A DNA stretch of 64,000 bases from Escherichia coli. GTDB taxonomy: Bacteria; Pseudomonadota; Gammaproteobacteria; Enterobacterales; Enterobacteriaceae. This document shows, one piece after another, positions 7,121 to 61,563 of this stretch. How positions within the stretch are numbered: the stretch's first letter is position 1; each line of letters opens with the position of its first letter. The stretch lies in assembly GCF_045037415.1 (NCBI RefSeq), contig NZ_CP173438.1. One strand, given 5' to 3'. The translations under genes were made by a program, and so were the position numbers. The notes under the pieces are model-generated. The model had not been told where the DNA came from, did not search any database, and saw nothing but the letters and a program-made list of their open reading frames with translations.

Positions 7121-7197
7121 GGCTACGTAGCTCAGTTGGTTAGAGCACATCACTCATAATGATGGGGTCACAGGTTCGAATCCCGTCGTAGCCACCA
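7121..7197 (+). tRNA. metT: tRNA-Met (CAU), elongator
   Basis: ggctacgtagctcagttggttagagcacatcactCATaatgatggggtcacaggttcgaatcccgtcgtagccacca; cloverleaf with CAU anticodon, encoded CCA. Confidence 0.95.
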
Positions 7198-7207
7198 TCT
7201 TTTTTTT

Positions 7208-7292
7208 GCGGGAGTGGCGAAATTGGTAGACGCACCAGATTTAGGTTCTGGCGCCGCAAGGTGTGCGAGTTCAAGTCTCGCCTCCCGCACCA
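7208..7292 (+). tRNA. leuW: tRNA-Leu (UAG), long variable arm
   Basis: gcgggagtggcgaaattggtagacgcaccagattTAGgttctggcgccgcaaggtgtgcgagttcaagtctcgcctcccgcacca. Confidence 0.95.
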
Positions 7293-7315
7293 TTCACCAG
7301 AAAGCGTTGTACGGA

Positions 7316-7390
7316 TGGGGTATCGCCAAGCGGTAAGGCACCGGTTTTTGATACCGGCATTCCCTGGTTCGAATCCAGGTACCCCAGCCA
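7316..7390 (+). tRNA. glnU: tRNA-Gln (UUG)
   Basis: tggggtatcgccaagcggtaaggcaccggtttTTGataccggcattccctggttcgaatccaggtaccccagcca. Confidence 0.95.
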
Positions 7391-7424
7391 TATTCTTCGA
7401 GTAAGCGGTTCACCGCCCGGTTAT

Positions 7425-7499
7425 TGGGGTATCGCCAAGCGGTAAGGCACCGGTTTTTGATACCGGCATTCCCTGGTTCGAATCCAGGTACCCCAGCCA
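7425..7499 (+). tRNA. glnW: tRNA-Gln (UUG), identical duplicate
   Basis: Identical 75-nt sequence to the preceding tRNA-Gln(UUG). Confidence 0.95.
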
Positions 7500-7514
7500 T
7501 CGAAGAAACAATCT

Positions 7515-7591
7515 GGCTACGTAGCTCAGTTGGTTAGAGCACATCACTCATAATGATGGGGTCACAGGTTCGAATCCCGTCGTAGCCACCA
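7515..7591 (+). tRNA. metU: tRNA-Met (CAU), elongator, duplicate
   Basis: Identical to the first tRNA-Met. Confidence 0.95.
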
Positions 7592-7639
7592 AATTCTGAA
7601 TGTGTCGAATATGTTCGGCAAATTCAAAAACCAATTTGT

Positions 7640-7714
7640 TGGGGTATCGCCAAGCGGTAAGGCACCGGATTCTGATTCCGGCATTCCGAGGTTCGAATCC
7701 TCGTACCCCAGCCA
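7640..7714 (+). tRNA. glnV: tRNA-Gln (CUG)
   Basis: tggggtatcgccaagcggtaaggcaccggattCTGattccggcattccgaggttcgaatcctcgtaccccagcca. Confidence 0.95.
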
Positions 7715-7751
7715 ATTTATTCAAGACGCTTACCTTGTAAGTGCACCCAGT

Positions 7752-7826
7752 TGGGGTATCGCCAAGCGGTAAGGCACCGGATTCTGATTCCGGCATTCCG
7801 AGGTTCGAATCCTCGTACCCCAGCCA
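7752..7826 (+). tRNA. glnX: tRNA-Gln (CUG), duplicate
   Basis: Identical to preceding tRNA-Gln(CUG). Confidence 0.95.
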
Positions 7827-7980: not shown

Positions 7981-9156
7981 CTACAACCCTAACGCATATT
8001 TCAGCGCCTTACGTTTCAACACGCCAGCACGCTCCGCCGCCATCAAACCAAGATTACGCACAAAACGCAGCGGTGGCAGATTATTGCTGAATCCGGCATA
8101 AAACAGATCCATACCACTTTGCATCATGAAGTTATCCGCCATACGCCGCATCTGGTAACGCTTGAGCACAGGATAACTGGCCCACGCTTCGCCGTAGCTG
8201 CGGGCGTTCACCAGAACGTCAATCAGGGCATCGACATCACGATAACCAAGATTCACTCCCTGCCCCGCCAGCGGATGGATGGTATGCGCGGCATCGCCCA
8301 CCAGAGCAAGCCCTGGTTGCACATACTGCAACGCATGGCGACGTATAAGCGGAAACGCACCAGCGGCAAGCGGTGTCACGTAACCCAGACGCGACGGGAA
8401 ATGCTTCGCGATTTCCGCCTGTAGCTGCGCCATATTCATATTCTGCAACTGGCGAATGCGCGCCGGAGAGTCATACCACACCAGCGATGCCCAGTTATCA
8501 AACAACGGCAGAAACGCACGCGGTCCGTCCGGGGTAAATTGCTGCCAGGTGCTGTCGCCGGGATCGTTCTCACACTGTACGCTAATCAACATACACGACT
8601 GCGCATACTGCCAGGCATGAACGCCAATTCCCGCCATCTGTCGCACCTGCGAATTTGCGCCGTCGGCACCAATCACCAGCTTCGCGAGGATCGTTTCACC
8701 GCCCTTCAGTTCCAGCTCCTGAAGATCATTATGGCGATGCAGTGCAGTCAGCGAGGTTGGCACACGTAACGTTACTTTCGGATGCGCTTCCAGCGCCTGC
8801 CACAAAGCCTGTTGCAGGACAGTGTTTTCCACCATGTAGCCAAGCAACGGTAGCTTAAGTTCAGCGGCGTCAAACACGACATGCGCCGTTTCCCACTCCC
8901 ACGTTTCCAGTCTGCGGTAAGGATGGCAACGCATAGCCTGTACTGCATCCCAGACCCCTAACCCTTTAAGCAATGATACCGAAGCCGCGCTGATCGCCGA
9001 GATCCGCACATCCGGTTGGCTGTCAGCGACAAACGGCGCAGGTTCTGCGTGCTCGATCACCGTTACCGTAAACCCGTGCTGTGCCAGCCCCAGCGCCAGT
9101 GCGCCGCCGACCATTCCTCCGCCGACAATGGCAATTTCCGTTGGTTGATTTGTCAT
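7981..9156 (-). CDS. ubiF: 2-octaprenyl-3-methyl-6-methoxy-1,4-benzoquinol hydroxylase (FAD monooxygenase)
   Basis: ORF 7981-9162; N-terminal FAD-binding GGGMVGG motif; start taken at the second Met (MTNQPTEIAIVGGG), 391 aa. Confidence 0.93.
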   Translation of the reverse strand: MTNQPTEIAIVGGGMVGGALALGLAQHGFTVTVIEHAEPAPFVADSQPDVRISAISAASVSLLKGLGVWDAVQAMRCHPYRRLETWEWETAHVVFDAAELKLPLLGYMVENTVLQQALWQALEAHPKVTLRVPTSLTALHRHNDLQELELKGGETILAKLVIGADGANSQVRQMAGIGVHAWQYAQSCMLISVQCENDPGDSTWQQFTPDGPRAFLPLFDNWASLVWYDSPARIRQLQNMNMAQLQAEIAKHFPSRLGYVTPLAAGAFPLIRRHALQYVQPGLALVGDAAHTIHPLAGQGVNLGYRDVDALIDVLVNARSYGEAWASYPVLKRYQMRRMADNFMMQSGMDLFYAGFSNNLPPLRFVRNLGLMAAERAGVLKRKALKYALGL

Positions 9157-9301
9157 GGTCAATCATCCTGTTAGCAATATGCTTTAAGTTTACAGGATTT
9201 TTACCCCCAAGGGCTGATAACGCTCATACTGGTCACAACGGCAGCAAAGCATTACACTATGCGCCCTGCATTCCTGGCTACTATTTCGCAAGAGCAAGTC
9301 G

Positions 9302-10726
9302 ATGACCAAAAAACTCCATATTAAAACCTGGGGCTGTCAGATGAACGAGTACGATTCATCGAAGATGGCCGATCTGCTGGATGCCACCCACGGCTATCAA
9401 CTGACCGACGTGGCGGAAGAAGCGGATGTGCTGCTGCTGAACACCTGCTCAATCCGCGAGAAGGCTCAGGAAAAAGTCTTCCATCAGTTGGGTCGCTGGA
9501 AACTGTTAAAAGAGAAGAATCCAGACCTGATTATCGGCGTCGGCGGCTGCGTGGCATCGCAAGAAGGCGAGCACATTCGCCAGCGCGCCCACTATGTCGA
9601 TATTATTTTTGGGCCGCAAACGCTGCATCGTCTACCGGAGATGATCAACTCCGTGCGCGGCGACCGCAGCCCGGTTGTAGATATCAGCTTCCCGGAAATC
9701 GAGAAGTTTGACCGTCTGCCGGAACCGCGCGCCGAAGGGCCGACCGCGTTTGTCTCCATCATGGAAGGCTGCAATAAATATTGCACCTACTGCGTGGTGC
9801 CTTACACCCGTGGTGAAGAGGTAAGCCGTCCGTCCGACGATATTCTGTTTGAGATCGCCCAGCTTGCGGCTCAGGGCGTGCGTGAAGTCAACCTGCTCGG
9901 TCAGAATGTGAATGCCTGGCGTGGTGAGAACTACGACGGCACCACCGGAACGTTTGCCGATCTGCTGCGTCTGGTTGCGGCGATTGACGGGATCGATCGT
10001 ATTCGCTTTACCACCAGCCATCCGATCGAATTCACCGACGATATCATCGAAGTGTATCGCGACACGCCGGAGCTGGTGAGCTTCCTGCACTTGCCGGTAC
10101 AGAGCGGTTCCGATCGCATTCTGAACCTGATGGGCCGTACTCACACGGCGCTGGAGTACAAAGCGATCATCCGTAAACTGCGTGCGGCGCGTCCGGATAT
10201 TCAGATCAGTTCTGACTTCATCGTTGGCTTCCCTGGCGAAACCACCGACGACTTCGAGAAAACGATGAAGCTGATTGCCGACGTCAATTTCGACATGAGC
10301 TACAGCTTTATCTTCTCCGCTCGTCCAGGAACGCCTGCCGCCGATATGGTTGATGATGTTCCGGAAGAAGAGAAGAAGCAGCGTCTGTATATTCTGCAAG
10401 AGCGCATTAATCAGCAAGCGATGGCATGGAGCCGCCGTATGCTCGGCACCACCCAGCGTATTCTGGTAGAAGGTACATCGCGTAAGAGCATCATGGAGCT
10501 TTCCGGTCGTACTGAAAATAACCGCGTGGTTAACTTCGAAGGCACGCCGGATATGATCGGTAAATTCGTCGATGTAGAAATTACCGACGTCTATCCAAAC
10601 TCCCTGCGCGGAAAAGTGGTGCGTACTGAAGATGAAATGGGTCTGCGCGTCGCAGAAACACCGGAATCGGTGATTGCCCGTACCCGCAAAGAAAACGACC
10701 TTGGCGTGGGTTATTATCAGCCGTAA
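9302..10726 (+). CDS. miaB: tRNA i6A37 methylthiotransferase (radical SAM)
   Basis: 474-aa ORF with CxxxCxxC radical-SAM motif (CNKYCTYC) and N-terminal MTTase cysteines. Confidence 0.96.
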
Positions 10727-10731
10727 TTCTC

Positions 10732-10767
10732 AGGCCCGCCGTTCCGGTGGGCCTTGTTTTTTCTCTC
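10732..10767 (+). terminator. hairpin plus T-run after miaB (attenuator/terminator)
   Basis: aggcccgcc-gttc-cggtgggcct followed by tgttttttctc. Confidence 0.45.
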
Positions 10768-10878
10768 TTTATCCCCATCTTTATCGCAATGCTTGCGCCT
10801 TTTTCCTGTGGCGTGAATAATTTCCTTATAGGCCGGTGAATGTTCAGCTTCCGGCGGCATACAGATAAGAGGAACGGT

Positions 10879-11919
10879 TTGAACATAGACACTCGCGAAA
10901 TCACCCTGGAGCCAGCAGACAATGCGCGTCTGTTGAGCCTGTGCGGCCCGTTTGATGACAACATCAAACAACTCGAACGCCGTCTCGGCATCGAAATCAA
11001 TCGCCGTGATAACCACTTTAAACTGACCGGCCGTCCGATTTGCGTCACCGCTGCGGCAGACATTCTGCGTAGCCTGTATGTCGATACTGCCCCGATGCGC
11101 GGTCAGATTCAGGATATCGAACCGGAACAGATCCACCTTGCGATTAAAGAAGCGCGGGTACTGGAGCAAAGCGCGGAGAGCGTGCCGGAGTACGGCAAAG
11201 CAGTCAATATCAAAACCAAACGCGGCGTAATTAAGCCGCGCACGCCAAACCAGGCGCAGTACATCGCCAATATTCTCGACCATGACATTACCTTCGGCGT
11301 TGGCCCGGCGGGTACGGGTAAAACCTACCTGGCAGTGGCTGCGGCAGTTGATGCCCTGGAGCGTCAGGAAATTCGCCGTATTCTGCTGACTCGTCCGGCG
11401 GTCGAAGCCGGTGAGAAACTGGGCTTCCTGCCTGGCGATTTAAGCCAGAAAGTAGACCCGTATCTGCGCCCGCTGTACGACGCGCTGTTTGAAATGCTGG
11501 GCTTTGAGAAAGTCGAGAAACTGATTGAGCGCAACGTTATTGAAGTCGCACCGCTGGCCTATATGCGTGGTCGTACGCTGAACGACGCGTTTATCATTCT
11601 TGATGAGAGCCAGAACACCACCATCGAACAGATGAAGATGTTCCTGACCCGTATCGGTTTTAACTCAAAAGCGGTTATCACCGGCGACGTCACACAGATC
11701 GACCTGCCGCGTAATACCAAGTCTGGTTTGCGTCATGCCATCGAAGTGCTGGCTGATGTCGAAGAGATCAGCTTTAACTTCTTCCACAGCGAAGACGTGG
11801 TTCGTCACCCGGTGGTGGCGCGTATCGTTAACGCTTATGAAGCCTGGGAAGAAGCCGAACAAAAACGTAAAGCGGCGCTGGCGGCAGAACGCAAGCGCGA
11901 AGAACAGGAACAAAAATGA
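10879..11919 (+). CDS. ybeZ: PhoH-like ATPase YbeZ
   Basis: ORF track 10840-11919; Walker A GPAGTGKT; likely TTG start at 10879 giving the 346-aa form ([12 protein letters not shown]...). Confidence 0.9.
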
Positions 11920-12383
11920 GTCAGGTGATCCTCGATTTACAACTGGCATGTGAAGATAATTCCGGGTTACCGGAAGAGAGCCAGTTTCAGACATGGCTGA
12001 ATGCGGTGATCCCGCAGTTTCAGGAAGAATCGGAAGTGACTATTCGCGTGGTCGATACCGCCGAAAGCCACAGTCTGAATCTGACCTATCGCGGTAAGGA
12101 TAAGCCGACCAACGTGCTCTCCTTCCCGTTTGAAGTGCCGCCTGGCATGGAAATGTCGCTACTGGGCGATCTGGTTATCTGCCGTCAGGTGGTTGAGAAG
12201 GAAGCTCAGGAGCAAGGCAAACCACTGGAGGCGCACTGGGCGCATATGGTGGTGCACGGCAGTCTGCATTTGTTAGGTTACGATCACATCGAAGATGACG
12301 AAGCAGAAGAAATGGAAGCCATCGAAACAGAGATTATGCTTGCTCTGGGCTATGAGGATCCGTACATTGCCGAGAAAGAATAA
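11916..12383 (+). CDS. ybeY: endoribonuclease YbeY (16S rRNA 3'-end maturation)
   Basis: 155-aa ORF with metallo-hydrolase motif [11 protein letters not shown]; start overlaps ybeZ stop (ATGA). Confidence 0.95.
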
Positions 12384-12472
12384 TTTGCCAGGCATTTGAC
12401 TGGCAGACGTCCCCGCCGTTGGTGATTAACGACGGCGTTTTGATTAACTAACATGAGAACCCATACGACGCC

Positions 12473-13352
12473 ATGAGCGACGACAATTCACACAGTAGTG
12501 ACACGATAAGCAACAAGAAGGGATTTTTCTCCCTGTTACTCAGCCAACTTTTCCACGGTGAACCGAAAAACCGTGACGAACTGCTGGCGCTGATCCGTGA
12601 TTCCGGGCAGAACGACCTTATCGACGAAGATACGCGCGATATGCTCGAAGGGGTGATGGACATCGCAGACCAACGCGTTCGCGACATCATGATCCCCCGC
12701 TCCCAGATGATTACCCTGAAACGCAACCAGACGCTGGACGAATGCCTTGATGTCATCATCGAGTCCGCCCACTCACGTTTCCCGGTGATTAGCGAAGACA
12801 AAGATCACATTGAAGGGATTCTGATGGCGAAAGACTTGCTGCCGTTTATGCGCAGCGATGCTGAAGCCTTCAGCATGGACAAAGTGTTACGTCAGGCGGT
12901 TGTCGTTCCTGAAAGTAAGCGCGTAGACCGGATGCTGAAAGAGTTTCGCTCTCAGCGTTACCACATGGCGATCGTCATTGACGAATTCGGTGGGGTTTCC
13001 GGTTCTCGTGACCATTGAAGACATCCTGGAACTGATTGTTGGTGAGATTGAAGACGAGTATGACGAAGAAGATGATATCGACTTCCGTCAGCTGAGTCGT
13101 CATACCTGGACCGTGCGCGCACTGGCTTCTATTGAAGACTTCAACGAAGCGTTCGGCACCCACTTTAGCGATGAAGAGGTTGACACTATCGGTGGTCTGG
13201 TGATGCAGGCATTTGGGCATCTTCCGGCGCGTGGCGAAACCATCGACATCGACGGTTACCAGTTCAAAGTGGCGATGGCCGACAGTCGGCGTATTATTCA
13301 GGTTCATGTCAAAATCCCGGATGACTCACCCCAGCCGAAGCTGGATGAATAA
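12473..13352 (+). pseudogene. corC: corC/ybeX (CBS-domain Mg/Co efflux-associated protein) disrupted by a +1 frameshift near 13003
   Basis: Two ORFs (12473-13018, 181 aa; 12978-13352, 124 aa) together cover the 292-aa CorC sequence; the span is 880 nt (not a multiple of 3); frame changes after ...DEFGGVSG at ggTTctc. Confidence 0.75.
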
Positions 13353-13376
13353 AACCGAAACTGGATAGATAACTAC

Positions 13377-14915
13377 ATGGCTTTTGCCTCATTAATTGAA
13401 CGCCAGCGCATTCGCCTGCTGCTGGCGTTATTATTCGGTGCCTGCGGAACGCTGGCCTTCTCTCCTTACGACGTCTGGCCTGCGGCGATTATTTCGCTGA
13501 TGGGACTTCAGGCGCTGACCTTTAACCGCCGTCCACTCCAGTCTACCGCTATTGGCTTTTGCTGGGGATTTGGCCTCTTTGGCAGCGGTATTAACTGGGT
13601 CTATGTCAGCATCGCGACCTTTGGCGGAATGCCTGGCCCGGTTAACATCTTCCTGGTGGTACTGCTGGCGGCGTATTTGTCGCTGTATACCGGACTGTTT
13701 GCTGGCGTGCTGTCGCGTCTGTGGCCGAAAACCACCTGGCTGCGCGTGGCGATTGCCGCCCCTGCTCTCTGGCAAGTGACCGAGTTTCTGCGCGGTTGGG
13801 TACTTACAGGCTTCCCGTGGTTACAGTTCGGCTATAGCCAGATTGATGGCCCGTTAAAAGGGCTGGCACCGATAATGGGCGTGGAAGCCATTAACTTCCT
13901 GCTGATGATGGTTAGTGGCCTGCTGGCACTGGCGTTGGTCAAACGCAACTGGCGTCCGCTGGTGGTGGCCGTCGTGCTGTTTGCCCTTCCCTTCCCGCTG
14001 CGTTACGTCCAGTGGTTTACCCCGCAACCGGAGAAAACCATTCAGGTTTCGATGGTTCAGGGCAATATTCCGCAATCGCTGAAATGGGACGAAGGCCAGC
14101 TTCTTAATACGCTGAAGATTTACTACAACGCAACGGCACCGCTGATGGGCAAATCATCGCTGATTATCTGGCCGGAGTCGGCGATAACCGATCTGGAAAT
14201 TAATCAGCAACCGTTCCTCAAAGCTCTGGACGGTGAGTTGCGCGATAAAGGTAGCTCGCTGATCACCGGGATTGTCGACGCGCGTCTCAATAAACAGAAC
14301 CGCTACGATACCTACAACACCATCATCACACTGGGTAAAGGCGCACCGTACAGCTATGAATCAGCCGATCGCTATAACAAAAACCATCTGGTGCCGTTTG
14401 GCGAGTTTGTCCCACTGGAGTCGATTCTGCGTCCATTAGCACCGTTCTTTGATTTGCCGATGTCGTCATTCAGCCGCGGACCATATATTCAGCCACCGCT
14501 GTCGTTGAATGGCATTCAACTTACTGCGGCCATTTGCTACGAAATCATTCTCGGCGAGCAAGTGCGCGATAACTTCCGCCCGGATACCGACTATCTGCTG
14601 ACTATCTCCAACGATGCGTGGTTTGGTAAGTCTATTGGTCCATGGCAGCACTTCCAGATGGCGCGAATGCGTGCGCTGGAGCTGGCGCGCCCACTGTTGC
14701 GCAGCACCAACAACGGCATTACGGCGGTGATTGGCCCGCAGGGTGAGATTCAGGCGATGATCCCGCAGTTCACCCGCGAGGTGTTAACCACTAACGTAAC
14801 GCCGACCACCGGACTCACCCCGTACTCACGTACCGGCAACTGGCCACTGTGGGTGCTGACGGCACTGTTTGGCTTTGCCGCTGTACTGATGAGTCTGCGT
14901 GCTCGCAAACGTTAA
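13377..14915 (+). CDS. lnt: apolipoprotein N-acyltransferase
   Basis: 512-aa ORF, N-terminal TM segments then C-N hydrolase domain. Confidence 0.96.
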
Positions 14916-14916
14916 T

Positions 14917-14950
14917 GTGCCTGATGCGCGACGCTTATCAGGCCTACGCG
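14917..14950. repeat. REP element
   Basis: tgcctgatgcgcgacgcttatcaggcctacg matches REP consensus palindrome. Confidence 0.6.
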
Positions 14951-15013
14951 ATTTTTGCAATATGTTGAATTTTCGCGATTTTGTAGGATAAAGCGTACTT
15001 TTTCAACACGCTC

Positions 15014-15039
15014 TGGGGCATGATTATCATGCCCTTTTT
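15014..15039 (+). terminator. rho-independent terminator after lnt
   Basis: ggggcatgattatcatgccc hairpin followed by TTTTTT; the stop codon of the convergent 625-aa gene abuts it. Confidence 0.7.
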
Positions 15040-15041
15040 TC

Positions 15042-16919
15042 TTACGGTTCAGGGATACAAGCCACATCGCCATATTGGGGATGCCGAATAATTGCCTGCG
15101 GATCAAGTGAACTTTCTCTGTCCAGTTGTATTAGCCCGTTCTTCGCCATAACAAATATCTTTCTACCATCCGCTGAAAAACGAAGATGATTCACGTAGCT
15201 GGCAGGATAAACGCCAATAATCTGCCCGGCATTAATATTGAGCAGGATGACATAACCTTGCAGGCCATATGACACCAACGCTAAATATTGACCGTCCGGG
15301 CTAATACCCTCAACGGAATAAACGCTCCTGCTACACCATTGCGTCATAATGCTGGCTTGTTGATCCTCAGCTCTTATACGTGAAATCCCCTGGCTATCGG
15401 CAAAAATAATCTCACCATTTTTTGGTCGGAATCCCATCGCAGAAACGACACCACGCGCATCACCTGCGGGAAAGTCTTCTTTCTGATGCGTGATGGTATT
15501 GATCCGCACGATGTTACCTCTGCCTGCTCCCGGAACCAGTAATGTTTTTTCATCCGGGGAAAGTGCCATAACCCAGGCGCCTGGTTTACCGCTCATCCCC
15601 GTCCCGTCGTATTTCTCCAGCGGGATATCCGCCACATGCTGATAAGCCACCAGATCAATCGCTGACACACTATTACTGGTGCGATTCATCACCCAGGCTT
15701 TTGTGCCATCACGCGAGAGGATAAGGCTGTCAGGATGTGCGCCGGTGGTAATCGACTGAATAATCTCCCCCGTTGCCACGTTAATGACCGATAATGCATT
15801 CGCTTCAAATGAAGTCGCATACAGCAACGTTTCATCCGGGCTTAGCGCCAGCGACCTGACGCCCTGATCTTTACAGCCACCACAATGTTTGACTGACTTT
15901 TCTTTCGCTATGGGGGCTGTAAAGGTATGCAGGATTTTCTTTTGTCCGAGGTCGAAAACAACAATGCTGTTCGTGTTTTCAATTGCGGCATACAACGTAT
16001 TAGCATCCCGACTGATCGCCATATCATGGATATCGGCAATCTCAGCGAGTAAATCACCACTGGCCTGCTCACGACTTACCGGAGCGGATAATGTTTCCCT
16101 GAGGGCGTTGCGCTCCTCCACTAACTGCTGCTTTTTTTGTCGTCGCTCTTGTTCAATCTCCTGCGGATAAAACGCTTCACGCAGGCTTTGCCTGACCTGT
16201 AAAACTGATTCATCAATCTGCTGCTGCACAAGCCAGATAGTCCCGGTCAGAAGAAGAGTGACCGCAACAATAATCCCGCCTTCCGTAACGAGCCGATTTT
16301 GCCCAACTAAACGCGCACTCAGCCAACCCAACGCGCCCCCCGCAATCAGGCCGCCAATGTGGCAAGCGTTATCTATTCCTGTTTGCCGGGTACCATACAA
16401 CAGTGTCAGCGCCACCATACCCAACAGAGGAAATACTCGCCGCTGGTTTTTATGGTGTGTGCCCGCACCTGAAGCAAGCTGTGTTGCTATCGCAGCGCCC
16501 GCTATTCCCATAATTGCCCCGGATGCCCCAACGCTGATGACTATCTGCTCACTTTCGCGTAACGCATAACAGGCGCTGATCAGCCCACCAAAGATGCCGG
16601 AGAATAACCAGATAATCAGGAGTCGCCATTTCCCCAGTATCCGTTCCGCCACTGTCCCCACCACCAGGAGTGCAAACATATTCATCAGCAAATGGGAAAA
16701 ACTACTGTGCAGAAAAACACTGCTCAATAAGCGCCAGGATTCATCCGACAACGTGAGAGAAGCAACGTTAGCGCCGAGATGGATGAGTGCGGATTGATCG
16801 ACTTCTTCGTAACTCATCCATTGTGCGAGGTAACAAAATATCCCAACACAGAGCGCAAAAAGGATCAGGGTTATTGCGGGTAATTGAACATTTAACGGCT
16901 TAACCGAAGATGCAGACAT
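15042..16919 (-). CDS. rhomboid-family intramembrane serine protease fused to a C-terminal seven-bladed beta-propeller (YVTN/YncE-like), 625 aa
   Basis: N-terminal ~230 aa: 7 predicted TM helices with rhomboid signatures (TM2 FLHSSFSHLLMNMF, catalytic GASGAIMG, catalytic His in ACHIGGLIAGG). Then a charged coiled-coil-like linker (QEIEQERRQKKQQLVEERNALRE) and ~350 aa of repeated beta-strand blades. Good RBS (AAGGAAG). Confidence 0.8.
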   Translation of the reverse strand: MSASSVKPLNVQLPAITLILFALCVGIFCYLAQWMSYEEVDQSALIHLGANVASLTLSDESWRLLSSVFLHSSFSHLLMNMFALLVVGTVAERILGKWRLLIIWLFSGIFGGLISACYALRESEQIVISVGASGAIMGIAGAAIATQLASGAGTHHKNQRRVFPLLGMVALTLLYGTRQTGIDNACHIGGLIAGGALGWLSARLVGQNRLVTEGGIIVAVTLLLTGTIWLVQQQIDESVLQVRQSLREAFYPQEIEQERRQKKQQLVEERNALRETLSAPVSREQASGDLLAEIADIHDMAISRDANTLYAAIENTNSIVVFDLGQKKILHTFTAPIAKEKSVKHCGGCKDQGVRSLALSPDETLLYATSFEANALSVINVATGEIIQSITTGAHPDSLILSRDGTKAWVMNRTSNSVSAIDLVAYQHVADIPLEKYDGTGMSGKPGAWVMALSPDEKTLLVPGAGRGNIVRINTITHQKEDFPAGDARGVVSAMGFRPKNGEIIFADSQGISRIRAEDQQASIMTQWCSRSVYSVEGISPDGQYLALVSYGLQGYVILLNINAGQIIGVYPASYVNHLRFSADGRKIFVMAKNGLIQLDRESSLDPQAIIRHPQYGDVACIPEP

Positions 16920-17372
16920 AAGGTGATTCTTCCTTGAAAAGACTAGTAAAAAGCATTTTCCCGTGTGTAGTTATCATCCCGGCAAACGTCCCACACCGAA
17001 AAGTTAACACTGTCCGAAATATGACTTTTTCAAACTGAAATTACAATCGTAATTAATTCACCCCTAAGTATTTTTTGGCATGTAAGTTGCTTTATTTACT
17101 GTGTAAGCAATGAAATCAGCCGCAACGCAACCGGGTTGCACCACCACAAATCAGCGGTAGCACCAAAAAGGTGCGGTTTAAGAATTTTGCTTCGGAATGG
17201 TGCGGCGCACCTCGCAAAAACAAACAATAAAACAGCAATATCTTTACATTTATCCAAACTAAATGTTACCTAACAAGCACAACACTGCACAATAAAGTCG
17301 CAGATGATAACAACACAAACACTCACAACGGGTATCCATGCGTTTTTAACGCAGAAGATAAAGGAGTTGGAT

Positions 17373-18281
17373 ATGCAATTACGTAAACCTGCCACAGCAA
17401 TCCTGGCCCTGGCGCTTTCCGCAGGACTGGCACAGGCAGATGACGCCGCCCCGGCAGCTGGCAATACGCTGGACAAAATCGCCAAAAACGGCGTGATTGT
17501 CGTCGGTCACCGTGAATCTTCAGTACCTTTCTCTTATTACGACAATCAGCAAAAAGTGGTGGGCTACTCGCAGGATTACTCCAACGCCATTGTTGAAGCA
17601 GTGAAAAAGAAACTCAACAAACCAGACTTACAGGTGAAATTGATTCCGATCACCTCACAAAACCGTATTCCACTGCTGCAAAACGGCACTTTCGATTTTG
17701 AATGCGGTTCTACCACCAACAATGCCGAACGCCAAAAACAGGCGGCTTTCTCTAACACTATTTTCGTGGTCGGTACGCGCCTGCTGACCAAAAAGGGCGG
17801 TGATATCAAAGATTTTGCCGACCTGAAAGGCAAAGCCGTAGTCGTCACTTCCGGCACCACCTCTGAAGTTTTGCTCAACAAACTGAATGAAGAGCAAAAA
17901 ATGAATATGCGCATCATCAGCGCCAAAGATCACGGTGACTCTTTCCGTACCCTGGAAAGCGGTCGTGCCGTTGCCTTTATGATGGATGATGCTCTGCTGG
18001 CCGGTGAACGTGCGAAAGCGAAGAAACCAGACAACTGGGAAATCGTCGGCAAGCCGCAGTCTCAGGAAGCCTATGGTTGCATGTTGCGTAAAGACGATCC
18101 GCAGTTCAAAAAGCTGATGGATGATACCATCGCTCAGGTGCAGACCTCCGGTGAAGCGGAAAAATGGTTTGATAAGTGGTTCAAAAATCCAATTCCGCCG
18201 AAAAACCTGAACATGAATTTCGAACTGTCAGACGAAATGAAAGCACTGTTCAAAGAACCGAATGACAAGGCACTGAACTAA
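17373..18281 (+). CDS. gltI: glutamate/aspartate ABC transporter periplasmic binding protein
   Basis: ORF track 17304-18281; true start at MQLRKPATAILALALSAGLAQA (signal peptide) preceded by AAGGAG; 302 aa. Confidence 0.95.
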   Translation: MQLRKPATAILALALSAGLAQADDAAPAAGNTLDKIAKNGVIVVGHRESSVPFSYYDNQQKVVGYSQDYSNAIVEAVKKKLNKPDLQVKLIPITSQNRIPLLQNGTFDFECGSTTNNAERQKQAAFSNTIFVVGTRLLTKKGGDIKDFADLKGKAVVVTSGTTSEVLLNKLNEEQKMNMRIISAKDHGDSFRTLESGRAVAFMMDDALLAGERAKAKKPDNWEIVGKPQSQEAYGCMLRKDDPQFKKLMDDTIAQVQTSGEAEKWFDKWFKNPIPPKNLNMNFELSDEMKALFKEPNDKALN

Positions 18282-18450: not shown

Positions 18451-19191
18451 ATGTCTATAGACTGGAACTGGGGTATTTTTTTACAACAAGCCCCGTTCGG
18501 CAACACCACCTATCTTGGTTGGATCTGGAGTGGCTTTCAGGTGACGATCGCTTTGTCGATCTGCGCCTGGATTATCGCTTTCCTCGTCGGTTCATTTTTC
18601 GGCATTTTACGTACCGTTCCAAACCGTTTTCTCTCCGGTCTGGGTACGTTGTATGTCGAACTGTTCCGCAACGTGCCGTTGATTGTGCAATTCTTTACCT
18701 GGTACCTAGTGATCCCGGAGCTGCTGCCAGAGAAAATCGGCATGTGGTTTAAGGCAGAGCTGGATCCCAATATTCAGTTTTTCCTTTCATCCATGCTCTG
18801 CCTGGGGCTGTTTACCGCCGCCCGTGTTTGCGAACAGGTACGCGCAGCTATTCAGTCGCTGCCGCGTGGGCAAAAAAATGCCGCGCTGGCGATGGGTCTG
18901 ACGCTACCGCAGGCTTACCGCTACGTACTGCTGCCTAATGCTTATCGCGTTATCGTCCCGCCGATGACCTCAGAGATGATGAACCTGGTGAAAAACTCCG
19001 CCATCGCCTCGACTATCGGTCTGGTGGATATGGCGGCGCAGGCGGGTAAATTGCTCGATTACTCGGCCCACGCCTGGGAGTCGTTTACCGCCATCACGCT
19101 GGCGTATGTATTGATTAACGCTTTTATCATGCTGGTGATGACGCTGGTTGAACGTAAAGTTCGCCTGCCCGGCAACATGGGGGGCAAATAA
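18451..19191 (+). CDS. gltJ: glutamate/aspartate ABC transporter permease
   Basis: 246-aa polytopic ORF; synteny. Confidence 0.95.
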
Positions 19192-20707: not shown

Positions 20708-21643
20708 ATGGCACTGCCAATTCTGTTAGATTGCGACCCAGGTCATGACGACGCTATCGCAATAGTTCTCGCCCTCGCCTCACCAGAGCTTGATGTCAAA
20801 GCAATTACGTCTTCCGCCGGAAACCAGACACCAGAAAAAACCTTACGCAATGTTCTGCGTATGCTGACCTTGCTTAATCGCACCGATATTCCGGTAGCAA
20901 GCGGTGCGGTAAAACCGTTAATGCGTAATTTGATTATTGCGGACAACGTGCACGGCGAAAGCGGCCTGGACGGCCCGGCATTGCCGGAACCGGCATTTGC
21001 ACCGCAAAACTGCACGGCAGTGGAGCTGATGGCGAAAACGCTGCGTGAAAGTGCGGAACCTGTCACCATTGTTTCTACCGGACCGCAAACTAACGTTGCC
21101 TTGCTGCTCAATAGCCACCCGGAACTGCATAGCAAAATTGCCCGTATCGTGATTATGGGCGGCGCAATGGGGCTTGGTAACTGGACGCCTGCGGCTGAAT
21201 TTAATATTTACGTTGACCCGGAAGCGGCAGAAATTGTCTTCCAGTCAGGAATTCCGGTGGTGATGGCCGGTCTGGATGTTACTCACAAAGCACAAATCCA
21301 CGTTGAAGACACTGAGCGTTTCCGCGCGATTGGCAACCCTGTTTCAACCATTGTTGCCGAACTGCTGGATTTCTTCCTCGAATATCACAAAGACGAAAAA
21401 TGGGGCTTTGTCGGCGCACCACTGCATGACCCATGCACCATCGCCTGGCTGTTGAAACCGGAGTTGTTTACCACTGTTGAGCGCTGGGTTGGCGTGGAAA
21501 CACAAGGGAAATATACCCAGGGTATGACAGTTGTTGATTATTATTATCTGACTGGCAATAAACCGAATGCCACCGTAATGGTCGATGTTGATCGTCAGGG
21601 CTTTGTTGATTTACTGGCTGATCGTCTGAAATTTTACGCTTAA
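20708..21643 (+). CDS. rihA: pyrimidine-specific ribonucleoside hydrolase
   Basis: ORF track 20675-21643; start at [15 protein letters not shown] (nucleoside hydrolase DxDxxxDD motif), 311 aa. Confidence 0.94.
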
Positions 21644-21726
21644 CATACGTCATTGATTAAGATCACCACGCATTACCTGGGTGGTCTTAATCTGGTTATC
21701 TCTTTTTCTTTCAAGATATAAATGCA

Positions 21727-23397
21727 ATGGATAATGCAGAACTTGCTATTGGTATCGATCTCGGTACTACCAATAGTTTAATTGCCGTCTGGAAAGACGG
21801 TGCCGCGCAATTAATTCCAAATAAGTTCGGTGAATATTTAACACCATCCATAATTAGCATGGATGAAAATAATCATATTTTAGTCGGAAAACCGGCTGTA
21901 TCACGGCGGACTTCGCATCCGGATAAAACGGCAGCGTTATTTAAACGTGCAATGGGCAGTAATACCAACTGGCGGTTAGGCAGCGACACATTTAACGCGC
22001 CAGAACTGTCCTCTTTGGTATTACGCTCATTAAAAGAAGATGCCGAAGAATTTCTGCAACGTCCGATTAAAGATGTGGTGATCTCCGTTCCTGCTTATTT
22101 CAGCGATGAACAACGCAAGCATACCCGTTTAGCAGCAGAGTTAGCCGGGCTAAATGCAGTGCGCCTGATTAATGAGCCAACGGCAGCCGCGATGGCGTAT
22201 GGCCTGCATACGCAGCAAAATACCCGCTCGCTGGTTTTTGATCTCGGTGGCGGCACGTTCGACGTTACGGTGCTCGAGTACGCCACGCCGGTGATTGAAG
22301 TTAACGCCTCCGCTGGCGATAACTTCCTCGGTGGCGAAGATTTTACCCATATGCTGGTCGATGAGGTTTTAAAACGCGCGGAAGTTGCCAAAACCACGCT
22401 TAACGATAGCGAACTGGCAGCCTTGTACGCCTGCGTGGAAGCGGCAAAATGTAGCAATCAATCGCCAATGCACATTCGCTGGCAGTACCAGGATGAAATG
22501 CGGAAATGCGAATTTTACGAGAACGAACTGGAAGATTTGTGGTTGCCGCTGCTCAATCGCTTGCGAGTGCCGATTGAACAGGCGTTGCGCGATGCACGTC
22601 TGAAGCCGAGTCAAATCGACAGTCTGGTGCTGGTTGGCGGCGCGTCACAAATGCCGCTGGTGCAGCGAATCGCAGTGCGTCTGTTTGGCAAATTACCGTA
22701 TCAAAGTTACGATCCGAGCACCATTGTCGCGCTGGGCGCAGCAATCCAGGCCGCCTGCCGCTTACGCAATGAAGATATTGAAGAAGTGATCCTCACTGAT
22801 ATTTGCCCTTACTCGTTGGGTGTTGAAGTTAACCGTCAGGGCGTATCCGGCATTTTCTCGCCGATTATTGAACGAAACACCACAGTACCGGTGTCGCGTG
22901 TAGAAACTTATTCAACCATGCACCCGGAACAGGATTCAATTACGGTTAACGTCTATCAGGGAGAAAACCACAAAGTTAAAAATAACATTCTTGTGGAATC
23001 CTTCGATGTGCCGTTGAAGAAAACCGGGACTTATCAGTCGATTGATATTCGCTTTAGTTATGATATCAACGGCTTGCTTGAAGTTGACGTGCTTCTGGAA
23101 GACGGCAGCGTTAAGTCCAGAGTGATTAATCACAGTCCGGTAACATTGAGCGCGCAGCAGATTGAAGAGAGTCGGACGCGGTTATCCGCATTGAAAATTT
23201 ATCCGCGCGATATGCTCATCAATCGCACCTTTAAAGCCAAACTGGAAGAGTTGTGGGCGCGGGCGCTGGGTGACGAGCGAGAAGAGATTGGTCGGGTGAT
23301 CACCGATTTTGATGCGGCGTTGCAGTCAAACGATATGGCCCGCGTGGATGAAGTTCGGCGGCGGGCGAGCGATTATTTAGCCATTGAGATCCCATAA
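21727..23397 (+). CDS. hscC: Hsp70-family chaperone HscC
   Basis: 556-aa ORF, Hsp70 ATPase motifs (IGIDLGTTNS, DLGGGTFD). Confidence 0.95.
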   Translation: MDNAELAIGIDLGTTNSLIAVWKDGAAQLIPNKFGEYLTPSIISMDENNHILVGKPAVSRRTSHPDKTAALFKRAMGSNTNWRLGSDTFNAPELSSLVLRSLKEDAEEFLQRPIKDVVISVPAYFSDEQRKHTRLAAELAGLNAVRLINEPTAAAMAYGLHTQQNTRSLVFDLGGGTFDVTVLEYATPVIEVNASAGDNFLGGEDFTHMLVDEVLKRAEVAKTTLNDSELAALYACVEAAKCSNQSPMHIRWQYQDEMRKCEFYENELEDLWLPLLNRLRVPIEQALRDARLKPSQIDSLVLVGGASQMPLVQRIAVRLFGKLPYQSYDPSTIVALGAAIQAACRLRNEDIEEVILTDICPYSLGVEVNRQGVSGIFSPIIERNTTVPVSRVETYSTMHPEQDSITVNVYQGENHKVKNNILVESFDVPLKKTGTYQSIDIRFSYDINGLLEVDVLLEDGSVKSRVINHSPVTLSAQQIEESRTRLSALKIYPRDMLINRTFKAKLEELWARALGDEREEIGRVITDFDAALQSNDMARVDEVRRRASDYLAIEIP

Positions 23398-23402
23398 ACA
23401 CG

Positions 23403-23440
23403 GCTACCGGATGCGGCGTAAACGCTGCATCCGGCATCGG
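23403..23440. repeat. REP-like palindrome
   Basis: ccggatgcggcgtaaacgctgcatccgg. Confidence 0.45.
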
Positions 23441-23456
23441 CGCAAAAAACACATCG

Positions 23457-24907
23457 TCAACTAAACAACATCGCGATTTTGCCGAGAGCATAACCTATCA
23501 CCAGCACCGTTAAACTGATTTTGATAATGCTGGTAATGCTCTGTGGTTTTTCATCCTCATCATTTATTTCTTCATGGTTTTCAGGTGTTGGCTCATCGAC
23601 ATCTTCATCCTCCGGCTCGAGCTTCACTTTCGTCAACAGCATTCGGGTGATAATGGTTCTAATGGATGTGCCTCTCCGCGTTCCAGCCGCGCGTCCAGAC
23701 GGGCCAGCATCTCTTGTTTCGGAAACGCTTCAAGTACTACCTGTTCCGCTACCCGATACAAATCCAGTAACGGTGAATCTTGCTCTGTCTCGCTACCGAC
23801 TCTCGATTTCCACCACGCCCATGCTTTGCGTTTGAAGAATAACGACTCAATAAACGATTGACCTAACGGCGATAATTTTCCGCTATGTAAAATCTCCGCC
23901 CATAACAGCCGCGTCCGGGCGCTCTCACCAGGAACATATTTCAACGGCTTACCTTGCGCATCTACCATGCTCCGCGCTTCGATAACCATCACTAATAACG
24001 CGAAATAATCCGGGCAATGACGCTTGCTCCACTGCAACAACAAATTATCGGCTTGTGTAGATGGGTAACTTTCCCGGTACGCGCAGAGATCGGCAAGCAG
24101 GCTTTCCCCCTCGCCGCAGTACAACCGTTGTGCGCACTGGTAATAACGGGCATCTTCGCTTTCTGGTTCTTCCGCTTGCCACTGTTGAGCGACAGGAATG
24201 AGTTCCGCCATACCTGTTTGCACCGAGCTGTACCAGCGCAACAGTTTGCGATGCAACTTCGCATCATCAGGAATGAACCACGGACCTTCCATCGCCAAAA
24301 ACGCAGTGACATAGTCAGGATGGTAACGGCAGCAACGTTCCAGCGAGAAGTAATACTCAACCGTCTGGTTCTGCAACGCAACGGGATATTCCAGAAGGCT
24401 AAGGAAATCGAAACAATCACCAGCCTGAATGGCCTCAAGAAAAGCCTCCCTTTCTTCCTCATCTATTCCTTCGCAGTCATTAAACGAATGCCAGTTCAAA
24501 CGCTCTGCCAGCAAAGAAGCACAATTTAATGAAAGATATCGCGCTTCTATAGCGATTGCACACAGCGGCCAGCGTAATTGATCGACATCCTCCATGTTCC
24601 AGGTATTTAATTGCTGAATAAATTTCTGCCAGGCGGAGGGCTGAAAACGATCATTTTCTGAATCCAGTAATGCCCTGAATACACGTAGTATTTCATGCTC
24701 AGTGGCAGCATCTTTTTCTTCATCATCTGCTTCCTCGACAGGATTTACCGCCAGTCGCAGCGCCTCTTCATAGGCCTGGCGTAATGCTTTAAACCCTTGT
24801 GGATCGGTTTCGGGATGACATAACGGTAAGCGAGCAAGATAAGCCTGGCGGATAATGTCTATTTGCGTCGTGCTTTCAATTTCGAGGATTTGCCAACATG
24901 TTTTCAT
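23457..24907 (-). pseudogene. djlC: J-domain co-chaperone DjlC (YbeV) with an apparent -1 frameshift near 23633-23642
   Basis: ORF 23633-24907 (424 aa, J-domain-like N-terminus) and ORF 23457-23642 (61 aa, acidic linker plus C-terminal TM anchor) overlap by 10 nt in different frames; combined span 1451 nt is not a multiple of 3 (expected 1452 for the 483-aa protein). Confidence 0.65.
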
Positions 24908-25611
24908 AGGTCGCTCACATCCTTAAGCGTTACCGGGCATTCAGGCTGGACAGTTAATGGCTGCCAGGGAAGCGTGGCATAGAAACGGTCGCTTCCCGCT
25001 GCCAGCTCTTCGAACATCCGACTCCCGGCGCTATCGTATTTGTACAGGGTTAGCGCCTCGCGTAGCGAAGCGTTGTCTTCGCACTGAGAAGATTGCCAGT
25101 AGAGACGCCCTAACGAATAGGCAGAAAAATAGTGCATCCAGCTGTGATAGTAATGGTGTGCTCGTATATAGACGCGCGATTGCAGCCATAAACTCTCGTC
25201 TTCCGTCAACCACTTGTTGAGCACACCAACCCGTGATAAAAAACCCATCCGCACATAATCCCAGGCTTTGATTCCCCCTTCCCCACAACACATAGCGGTT
25301 TGGGCAACGAATTGGGTATAAATCAACCCTCTCTCCGAGCCGCCAGCAATTAATGCTTTCCACTCTTCAGGGGAAGAGCGATGCCATGTCAGATATAAGC
25401 CAGCTAAATCATTGGCATGACCATCATCGGTCATCTGATAAATAGTCTGAATTAAATCATCACGATTATTTATTCCCCAGGATGATGAGAGATCGAATTC
25501 TTTTATCCCGGTATACATTTTTGGCGAGTCATGCGCGGGCTTGCAACCCTGATTAAGTATTTCCATGGGCGTAGAAAGCGCAAAAAGAAGATATTGTTCT
25601 TCCTTATTCAT
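24904..25611 (-). CDS. ybeU: DUF1266-family protein YbeU
   Basis: 235-aa ORF; stop overlaps djlC start. Confidence 0.85.
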
Positions 25612-25712
25612 TTGTTAATAATCCCTTAAGTGCATTAACTGACTACTTTTTTATTATTGATGAGTATAAACTTGACGCTTTCAAAATAAAAAGAAAATCG
25701 AAGCATTCACAC

Positions 25713-26267
25713 ATGAATAAAAAATTAATGTATATATTCGCAATATTTATAGTTGCAGCAATAACCTGTATTAGCCAACCCAAGAAAACGACGTTGCGTG
25801 ATAAAGCCATGGCGAATTATGCCTTTGATTATTTAAGCTCACCGGGCAGTCTTCCATTCACCACGGCAGCCACGGAGCTTTCCGCGATTCATGGTCACTC
25901 AACGTCGCAATATCGCCTTGGAGAATTTTATCTTCATGGTAGCGACGGTAAACCACTGGATTATACACAGGCGAGATACTGGTATGAGCAATCAGCAGAA
26001 CAGGAAAATCCACGCGCGCAAAGTAAACTGGGGTGGATCTACCTCAAAGGTCTGGGGGTCAAACCCGACACCCGTAAAGCAATTCTCTGGTATAAGGAAG
26101 CAGCTGAACAAGGGTATGCTCATGCTCAATATACTTTGGGTTTGATCTACAGAAATGGCTCAGGTATTAATGTTAACCATTATGAATCTCAAAAATGGTT
26201 AAAACTGGCCGCCAAACAACATTACAAAAATGCGGAAAGATTACTTGCCGGGCTTTCCGCACATTAA
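25713..26267 (+). CDS. ybeT: Sel1-repeat protein YbeT
   Basis: 184-aa ORF with N-terminal hydrophobic segment and Sel1/TPR-like repeats ([21 protein letters not shown]...). Confidence 0.85.
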
Positions 26268-26343
26268 CGTCGACTGTCACCCGAACAGATGGAGTATTTT
26301 CCCTATCAAACCAGCAAAGATAAAAATATAGAAAATAATTTTA

Positions 26344-26742
26344 ATGATGCCCAGACAGCCTGGCCCACCATCGTCAACGGGCATTGGCTGCGGTTGCGGC
26401 TCCGATAACGCTGGCGAAGGGGTGGACCAGGACTATAAGCAAGCGATGTACTGGTATCTGAAGGCTGCTGCTCAGGAAAGCGTCGGCGCTTACGTCAACA
26501 TCGGTTATATGTATAAACACGGACAAGGCGTTGAGAAAGATTATCAGGCCGCCTTTGAATAGTTTACGATAGCCGCTGAATGCAATGACGCCACAGCCTG
26601 GTATAACCTGGCCATTATGTATCACTACGGAGAAGGAAGACCTGTCGATCTCCGACAGGCTCTCGACTTGTATCGTAAAGTTCAGTCATCCGGAACCAGA
26701 GATGTCAGTCAAGAAATTCGTGAGATTGAAGATTTACTGTAG
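26344..26742 (+). pseudogene. ybeQ: 3' remnant of a Sel1-repeat gene (ybeQ-like) with in-frame amber stop at 26560
   Basis: Sel1-type repeats read in one frame (...AMYWYLKAAAQESVGAYVNIGYMYKHGQGVEKDYQAAFE*FTIAAECNDATAWYNLAIMYHYGEGRPVDL...); no credible N-terminus. Confidence 0.6.
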
Positions 26743-26811
26743 AGATAAAAACAAGGGCCGGGGAATTTCATTCGGCCCATATTCTCTTTATTGCTGTGCG
26801 AAATCAGACTA

Positions 26812-27294
26812 TTACGGCTCAAACGGGCGTCTCTGGAACTGGTCATGACCACATTTAGGGCATAGCGTCAGCACTTCCGGTGTGTAGATCGGGAGATGGA
26901 AGTGACATTTCTCGCAGACCAGATTTCCCAGCCCTACCACTTCTCCGCTGTGATAAACCCCATGATGATTGAGGTCCTGGAAAACTTCGCGCCATTCAAG
27001 CTGCGTTTTATCGGTGATGTCTGCCAGCTCCTGCCACAAGCTTTCTTTAATCACCCGCATAAAGACGCTGTCAGACTCTTCTTTCAGGCTCTCTTCATAG
27101 CTCATGGCGAACTCTTCCAGGTCACGTCTGACAGCTCGCGTCAGCTCATCGACCTCGGTTCGCGTTAACTCCCCTGTTTTTATTACGCGCTCGCGCGCCT
27201 GTTCCACCAGTGCGTCGATATCACGTTCGCCATTGCGCAGGCGTTCGCTCAGTGACGCGACCAGTTCACGGTAATATTGAGCAACCTTGTTCAT
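26812..27294 (-). CDS. ybeL: DUF1451 zinc-ribbon protein YbeL
   Basis: 160-aa ORF with C-terminal CxxC...CxxC. Confidence 0.9.
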   Translation of the reverse strand: MNKVAQYYRELVASLSERLRNGERDIDALVEQARERVIKTGELTRTEVDELTRAVRRDLEEFAMSYEESLKEESDSVFMRVIKESLWQELADITDKTQLEWREVFQDLNHHGVYHSGEVVGLGNLVCEKCHFHLPIYTPEVLTLCPKCGHDQFQRRPFEP

Positions 27295-58359: not shown

Positions 58360-58714
58360 TCCCATCTGCACAAGCGATAACTCGCTTTGCCCAGAGGATG
58401 CACTCGCATCCTCTTTCCGCTCAAATATCAACCAGATTTATCATTTTGCTCTTAAGCGCAGCATTCTAATCTGAACTGGTTATTCATCTGCGGAACCTCA
58501 TATGAGCGAAGCTCTCGGTATCACTGCATTTTATATATTCATAGCAGCAATTATTGTTGCTGCAGTGCTATACCTTGAACAACGCTGGTAGCGCCTGGTT
58601 TTATTTATTTTCCAGCTCAATAGCAAATTCAGATCAAATCAGCCTCGCAAATTATAGATTCATAACCAATAATGTGCTGTTATGTATACATGCAAAAACA
58701 AGGAGAGAATGCTT

Positions 58715-60999: not shown

Positions 61000-61563
61000 T
61001 TAGATTTTACCAACCAGGTCCAGAGACGGAGCCAGAGTTGCTTCACCTTCTTTCCATTTAGCCGGGCAAACTTCACCTGGGTGAGAAGCTACGTACTGTG
61101 CTGCTTTGATTTTACGCAGCAGGTCAGACGCGTCACGGCCAATGCCTTCAGCGGTAACTTCGATTGCCTGGATGATACCCTGCGGGTCAACAACGAAGGT
61201 CGCACGGTCAGCCAGACCTTCATCTTCACGCATGTTGTCGAAGTTACGGGTCAGGGCGCCAGTCGGGTCGCCGATCATCGCATATTTGATTTTAGCGATG
61301 GTTTCAGAGCTGCTGTGCCATGCTTTGTGGGTGAAGTGAGTATCGGTAGATACTGCGTATACGTCTACGCCCAGTTTCTGCAGTTCTTCGTAATGGTCAG
61401 CAACGTCACCCAGTTCGGTCGGGCATACGAAAGTAAAGTCAGCCGGGTAGAAGAAGAAGACGCTCCAGCGGCCTTCGGTATCTTTTTCGGTGATTTCGAT
61501 GAATTCGCCGTTTTTGAATGCCTGGTTTTTAAAAGGTTTAATTTTGGTGTTAATCAAGGACAT
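61000..61563 (-). CDS. ahpC: alkyl hydroperoxide reductase subunit C (peroxiredoxin)
   Basis: 187-aa 2-Cys peroxiredoxin (FTFVCPTE). Confidence 0.97.

Follow-up and report, generated by a model that had tools for sequence, protein, structure and literature searches.

HscC of Escherichia coli is a divergent Hsp70, present below the proteomic detection limit, whose ATPase is stimulated by the J domain of DjlC, whereas DnaJ, CbpA and HscB leave it unstimulated (PMC8215388; K-12 proteins). DjlC is itself a tail-anchored inner-membrane protein, and cadmium sensitivity follows the loss of hscC, or of djlB and djlC together (PMC8215388). Here we examine the hscC locus in a 64-kb stretch of an E. coli chromosome running from nagB through ybdN (contig NZ_CP173438.1; 64,000 nucleotides, hereafter the window), in which djlC is split by a single-base deletion. 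The assembled sequences suggest that this frameshift is most probably a methylation-linked base-calling or consensus artefact, and that the chaperone module would be of the standard kind.

The closest described counterpart is the K-12 cluster ybeQ-ybeR-djlB-ybeT-ybeU-djlC-hscC (b0644-b0650). From rihA to ybeL the two loci share genes, order and orientation, and their DNA is 97% identical; the DjlC proteins of K-12 and of the lineage to which the window belongs agree at 462 of 483 residues. The window differs from K-12 in lacking 2,807 bp (ybeR, and most of djlB and ybeQ) and in a djlC that is short by one base. A first-pass annotation of this DNA had described HscC as having a dedicated, membrane-anchored J-protein partner, which the published work supports, and no established client, in agreement with two reviews (PMC8215388; PMC13254874).

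Results

Both indels of the window lie in Eco31I sites

Two genes, djlC and corC, are interrupted by single-base changes in the window. As written, their parts are the following:

23457-24907, minus strand: djlC, whole span of the split gene, from open reading frames (ORFs) and the annotation of the SK1144 genome
23633-24907, minus strand: 5' frame of djlC as written, 424 aa, consisting of 417 native residues, then PLSPECC and a stop
23457-23642, minus strand: 3' remainder of djlC, a 61-aa ORF holding the acidic linker and the C-terminal tail-anchor helix; its translation equals the C-terminus of SK1144 and K-12 DjlC
23655-23659, plus strand: djlC frameshift site; in all relatives an Eco31I site, GGTCTC, here read as GGTTC with C4, the 5-methylcytosine (m5C) position, missing
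13001-13007, plus strand: site of the inserted T that splits corC into ORFs at 12473-13018 and 12978-13352

Between positions 19000 and 29000 the window and SK1144 are one base apart. A C is absent after 23657, such that GGTCTCT becomes GGTTCT, and restoring it reproduces the 483-aa DjlC of SK1144 exactly. SK1144 otherwise has the same deletion junction and the same four proteins of the locus as the window, and a further genome, 4/1-1, gave a 100.0% match to positions 21000-27000. SK1144 and 4/1-1, like Esc28 below, are ST131-type genomes with an intact annotated djlC. The genome counts in this text refer to a set of 5,426 complete E. coli genomes. None of them (0/5,426) contains an exact match to an 81-mer with the djlC deletion at its centre; there were 565 imperfect matches, with one extra base in those listed. 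Indeed, as a pseudogene lesion the frameshift was seen in no relative in this set, and djlC is intact in the near-identical genome Esc28.

When the whole window was compared with SK1144, the only differences, tRNA-array copy number aside, were two indels and two single-nucleotide polymorphisms (SNPs). No homopolymer errors were found over the 64 kb against either SK1144 or Esc28, showing that the assembly is otherwise very clean. The second indel is a T inserted at 13003, which converts GGTCTC to GGTTCTC and splits corC. Both indels are thus within the same hexamer: djlC has lost C4, and corC has gained a T adjoining T3. This motif is rare in the window, with two copies as written and four after indel correction against the 18.65 ± 4.37 expected from composition (64 kb), a 4-5 fold depletion. 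All four lie on the plus strand and none on the minus; those at 42876 and 54000 are intact, and those at 13001 and 23655 are damaged. We estimate the chance that two random indels would both fall in GGTCTC at about 2e-7.

In the sequence type 131 (ST131) strain EC958, an Eco31I restriction-modification system is encoded on GI-leuX, and GGT(m5C)TC / GAG(m6A)CC, where m6A is N6-methyladenine, is methylated at 100% of sites (PMC4659465). The bases affected in the window are the modified ones, since C4 is the m5C and T3 pairs with the m6A. Both Eco31I methylase genes are present in 633/5,426 genomes. In the four closest ST131 genomes inspected, the Eco31I sites in question are intact.

Eco31I sites are also altered in a sister genome

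Over 24,081 bp the djlC base is the only difference between Esc28 and the window; the remaining 39 kb add two SNPs. It is annotated with an intact djlC (483 aa) and with corC as a pseudogene, and was the only database genome found to share the corC insertion. The split of corC is probably an artefact of the same type as the djlC lesion. The two SNPs lie at window positions 58592 and 61130, where the window has the same bases as SK1144. The change at 61130 gives Esc28 an unusual AhpC accession, and that at 58592 adjoins a Dcm site (CCTGG). Esc28 may be in error at both positions.

GI-leuX of Esc28 carries both Eco31I methylase genes; they are not between yaaJ and talB, the place suggested by the tags EC958_0008-0010. 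Over 125 kb around GI-leuX, 2 of the 16 Eco31I sites that could be aligned with 4/1-1 are altered in Esc28 (record positions 1176186 and 1156813). One alteration turns GGTCTC into GGTTCTC and frameshifts a GTPase gene on GI-leuX, of which 4/1-1 has an intact copy. In the other, GAGACC reads GAAACC in fecD, which on the GGTCTC strand is a change of C4, the m5C position, to T. This comparison contained a single indel outside the motif, at the end of an insertion sequence (IS) element. Only some Eco31I sites are hit, and the window and Esc28 assemblies do not have the same ones affected.

We also noted that in Esc28 an ISEcp1-blaCTX-M-15 / IS26 / aac(6')-Ib-cr / OXA-1 unit is inserted in the chromosome, within GI-leuX (8718-18173 of the island stretch), with the Eco31I methylase genes on one side of it and the endonuclease gene on the other. 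The endonuclease coding sequence is 1,671 nt long in Esc28 and 1,740 nt in 4/1-1; therefore, restriction may have been lost and methylation kept in Esc28.

Base-calling artefact or mutation

The case for an artefact rests on the fact that a near-perfect assembly has its rare discrepancies at the two bases that are modified in a lineage-specific motif. The single-base deletion in djlC would then be likely absent from the bacterial DNA, and DjlC intact. Removal of the Eco31I m5C in one gene, and a change at the neighbouring base opposite m6A in the other, both have the look of a base-calling or consensus error brought about by the modification, such as is known for nanopore assemblies. Lohde et al (2024; PMC11610573) described assemblies that resemble the window and Esc28 in this respect: their errors were confined to strain-specific methylated motifs and varied between near-identical strains, in assemblies that were otherwise accurate. 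Methylation-induced nanopore errors in that study also varied between assemblies at the same position. We found no report in the literature of a nanopore error specific to GGTCTC.

The first-pass annotation had named an assembly error in djlC, with an otherwise standard module, as the finding that would overturn its account. The 0/5,426 count and the coincidence with Eco31I come close to this, on the evidence of assembled sequences. Some points weigh against an artefact. The errors reported in PMC11610573 were mostly A/G or C/T substitutions, whereas the two changes in the window and one of those in Esc28 are single-base indels, and the window need not be a nanopore assembly. The corC insertion is common to Esc28, which fits an inherited real mutation as well as it fits a reproducible error. 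As for the Eco31I genes, they are not within the window, and their presence in the source strain is deduced from its nearest relative, Esc28. Finally, error-rich assemblies may have been screened out of the RefSeq 'complete' set, so that the count of 0/5,426 carries less weight.

We next consider a genuine, private mutation of djlC, which we regard as unlikely. It would leave a soluble DjlC of 424 aa with an intact J domain and no tail anchor, and HscC would no longer be recruited to the membrane in a lineage that lacks DjlB. The frameshift does stand in the sequence as given, within an assembly free of homopolymer errors, and a loss should be tolerable, because the cell can dispense with djlC and hscC, whose expression is under the limit of proteomic detection (PMC8215388). 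However, the deletion is unique among the genomes searched, and the near-identical Esc28 does not have it. It also coincides with the m5C of one of only four Eco31I sites, the other indel being in another such site in a conserved gene, and there is no known mechanism for real indels at these bases.

What such a mutation would do to the protein can be read from the sequence. Of 483 codons, the lesion falls at number 418; the J domain and all of the central region are kept, and the acidic linker and the tail anchor are lost. The tail-anchor helix is at about residues 458-482 of full-length DjlC, with the hydropathy maximum at residues 457-482. As the sequence stands, the J-domain frame stops after residue 424, leaving the anchor to the separate 61-aa ORF. 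The N-terminus is identical to that of K-12 DjlC, with HPE at residues 31-33, a known functional variant in DjlB and DjlC (PMC13254874). The Pfam DnaJ match is weak and below the gathering score (E=0.004; 17.7 bits against a cut-off of 27.8), which fits the known divergence of the DjlC J domain, with HPE for HPD. Hence, the earlier description of the J-protein as looking inactivated was correct in that the ORF is split in the sequence, but too strong in its wording, since even a real lesion would remove only the linker and tail anchor and would spare 417 native residues, J domain included. If the deletion were real, the isolate would make an anchor-less DjlC with its J domain in a DjlB-lacking lineage, providing a natural separation-of-function allele for the membrane tethering of HscC; we consider this improbable.

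Less probable still is a reading in which this sublineage has true mutational hotspots at its Eco31I sites, for example because the m5C/m6A dinucleotide is processed, and in which the changes in corC, djlC, the GTPase gene and fecD are all real. The C4 to T change in fecD is a classic product of m5C deamination, and the corC insertion is shared by two distinct genomes. However, deamination yields transitions and so accounts only for fecD, not for the +T and -C indels at the other three sites. Moreover, although 633 of the complete genomes searched have the methylase pair, the djlC deletion is in none of them and the corC insertion in one (Esc28), and the sites are intact in the four closest ST131 genomes inspected. 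Programmed frameshifting in djlC was rejected, as the protein is encoded in a single frame in each of the 565 genomes of the lineage.

The remainder of the hscC locus

The other features of the locus are as follows:

21727-23397, plus strand: hscC, specialised Hsp70, 556 aa, intact ORF with a Pfam HSP70 match; DNA equal to SK1144 hscC, product WP_000367903.1
24904-25611, minus strand: ybeU, DUF1266 protein, 235 aa (Pfam DUF1266)
25713-26267, plus strand: ybeT, Sel1-repeat protein, 184 aa, with a hydrophobic N-terminus, divergent from ybeU (Pfam Sel1)
26277-26402, minus strand: djlB 3' remnant, the final ~126-128 nt of the gene (SK1144 annotation and K-12 alignment)
26404/26405, no strand: junction of the 2,807-bp deletion relative to K-12 (K-12 675,908-678,714; alignment)
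26407-26742, plus strand: ybeQ 3' remnant with Sel1 repeats and an internal stop (SK1144 annotation and ORF fragments)

The identities and coordinates assigned earlier to hscC, djlC, ybeU and ybeT were borne out by the ORFs, by Pfam and by the SK1144 RefSeq annotation, in which hscC, djlC, the DUF1266 protein gene and ybeT are followed by a 126-nt gene remnant, a truncated ybeQ, ybeL and leuS. HscC matches Pfam HSP70 over residues 7-539 (E=8.5e-117) and does not reach the NCBIfam equivalog cut-offs for DnaK and HscA, as a member of the third subfamily should not; its gene is the orthologue of b0650 and, consistent with this, is located between rihA and djlC. YbeU has a strong match to DUF1266 (PF06889; E=3.8e-45, 154.7 bits against a cut-off of 27), and YbeT contains three Sel1 repeats (PF08238; E=1.1e-30, 105.4 bits, above the gathering score). 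NCBIfam has no dedicated model for DjlC or YbeU.

An Rfam scan revealed no RNA element within 21.7-26.9 kb, and promoter and terminator scans of the region gave no more than the chance level of hits. An anti-phage reading of the locus was dropped, since none of HscC, DjlC, YbeU and YbeT matched any PADLOC model.

A 6-kb query around the locus found matches in 5,424/5,426 genomes, with ~100% identity to many ST131-type strains. The hscC-djlC-ybeU-ybeT cluster is an ordinary, previously described locus, in the form fixed in ST131-type E. coli.

The missing paralogous block is a lineage trait

Alignment with K-12 showed a clean loss of 2,807 bp, comprising ybeR in full, the 5' two-thirds of ybeQ and the initial 1,300 nt of djlB. 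The absence of this paralogous block, reported in the first-pass annotation as a feature of the strain, is thus real, but it is not peculiar to one strain: a 100-mer across the exact junction was found in 565/5,426 genomes, and the lineage djlC allele likewise in 565. Given that an identical junction occurs in so many genomes, the loss of ybeQ'-ybeR-djlB' is an old 2.8-kb deletion that marks a lineage rather than a strain. The full ybeQ-ybeR-djlB block is present in 3,713/5,426 genomes, and about one-third of complete genomes are without it. In K-12, the second copy, ybeR-djlB, is ~66% identical and comes with its own divergent Sel1 gene.

YbeU may act together with DjlC

The ybeU stop and the djlC start overlap by 4 nt. 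On a Salmonella contig (5881-13006), ybeL is followed by a 331-aa gene, two tandem DUF1266-J pairs and hscC, and there is no ybeT-like gene between the pairs. Because of the translational coupling implied by the overlap, and because the DUF1266 and J genes have been duplicated and kept together as a pair, we infer that YbeU works with DjlC, and that the DUF1266 protein and the J-protein may form a unit that recruits HscC to the membrane. A search for YbeU homologues returned Enterobacteriaceae only, and a literature search on DUF1266 found nothing relevant. The Salmonella J-proteins also have the newer Pfam family PF27158 (DjlB_C_2nd), which was not reported for DjlC by the Pfam copy scanned here.

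Other observations in the window

The tRNA array at 7121-7826 has seven genes (Met, Leu, Gln x2, Met, Gln x2), as in Esc28; SK1144 has six, a copy-number difference in the glnV/glnX repeat. We take K-12 to have seven as well. At ~15042-16919 on the minus strand, between lnt and gltI, relatives are annotated with a 625-aa rhomboid-family intramembrane serine protease gene; in K-12 there is presumably no gene at this place. Finally, ybeF, encoding a LysR-type regulator (~40936-41460, plus strand), is annotated as a frameshifted, truncated pseudogene in SK1144 and Esc28. Since both genomes show the lesion, ybeF looks like a real lineage pseudogene.

Discussion

The results presented above concern annotation quality more than chaperone biology. 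The locus is already known, and the window gives no new handle on the HscC client. Single-base changes at Eco31I sites in ST131-type assemblies can, however, yield false pseudogenes, of which djlC and corC in the window would be examples, as would the GTPase gene and the FecD variant in Esc28. We therefore suggest that GGTCTC sites be masked or rechecked in gene-loss or core-genome multilocus sequence typing (cgMLST) comparisons within this clinically important clone. If the djlC deletion were real after all, the anchor-less allele could be used to probe whether HscC needs membrane tethering, for example via cadmium sensitivity or HscC localisation.

From published work, HscC probably acts on the membrane's cytoplasmic side via tail-anchored DjlC; it is placed there because the J domain that triggers its ATPase belongs to a tail-anchored protein. 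This arrangement resembles DnaK/DjlA and HscA/HscB, in which a dedicated J-protein likewise directs an Hsp70 to a place or a client. It differs from both in that DjlC is tail-anchored at its C-terminus and has HPE in place of HPD.

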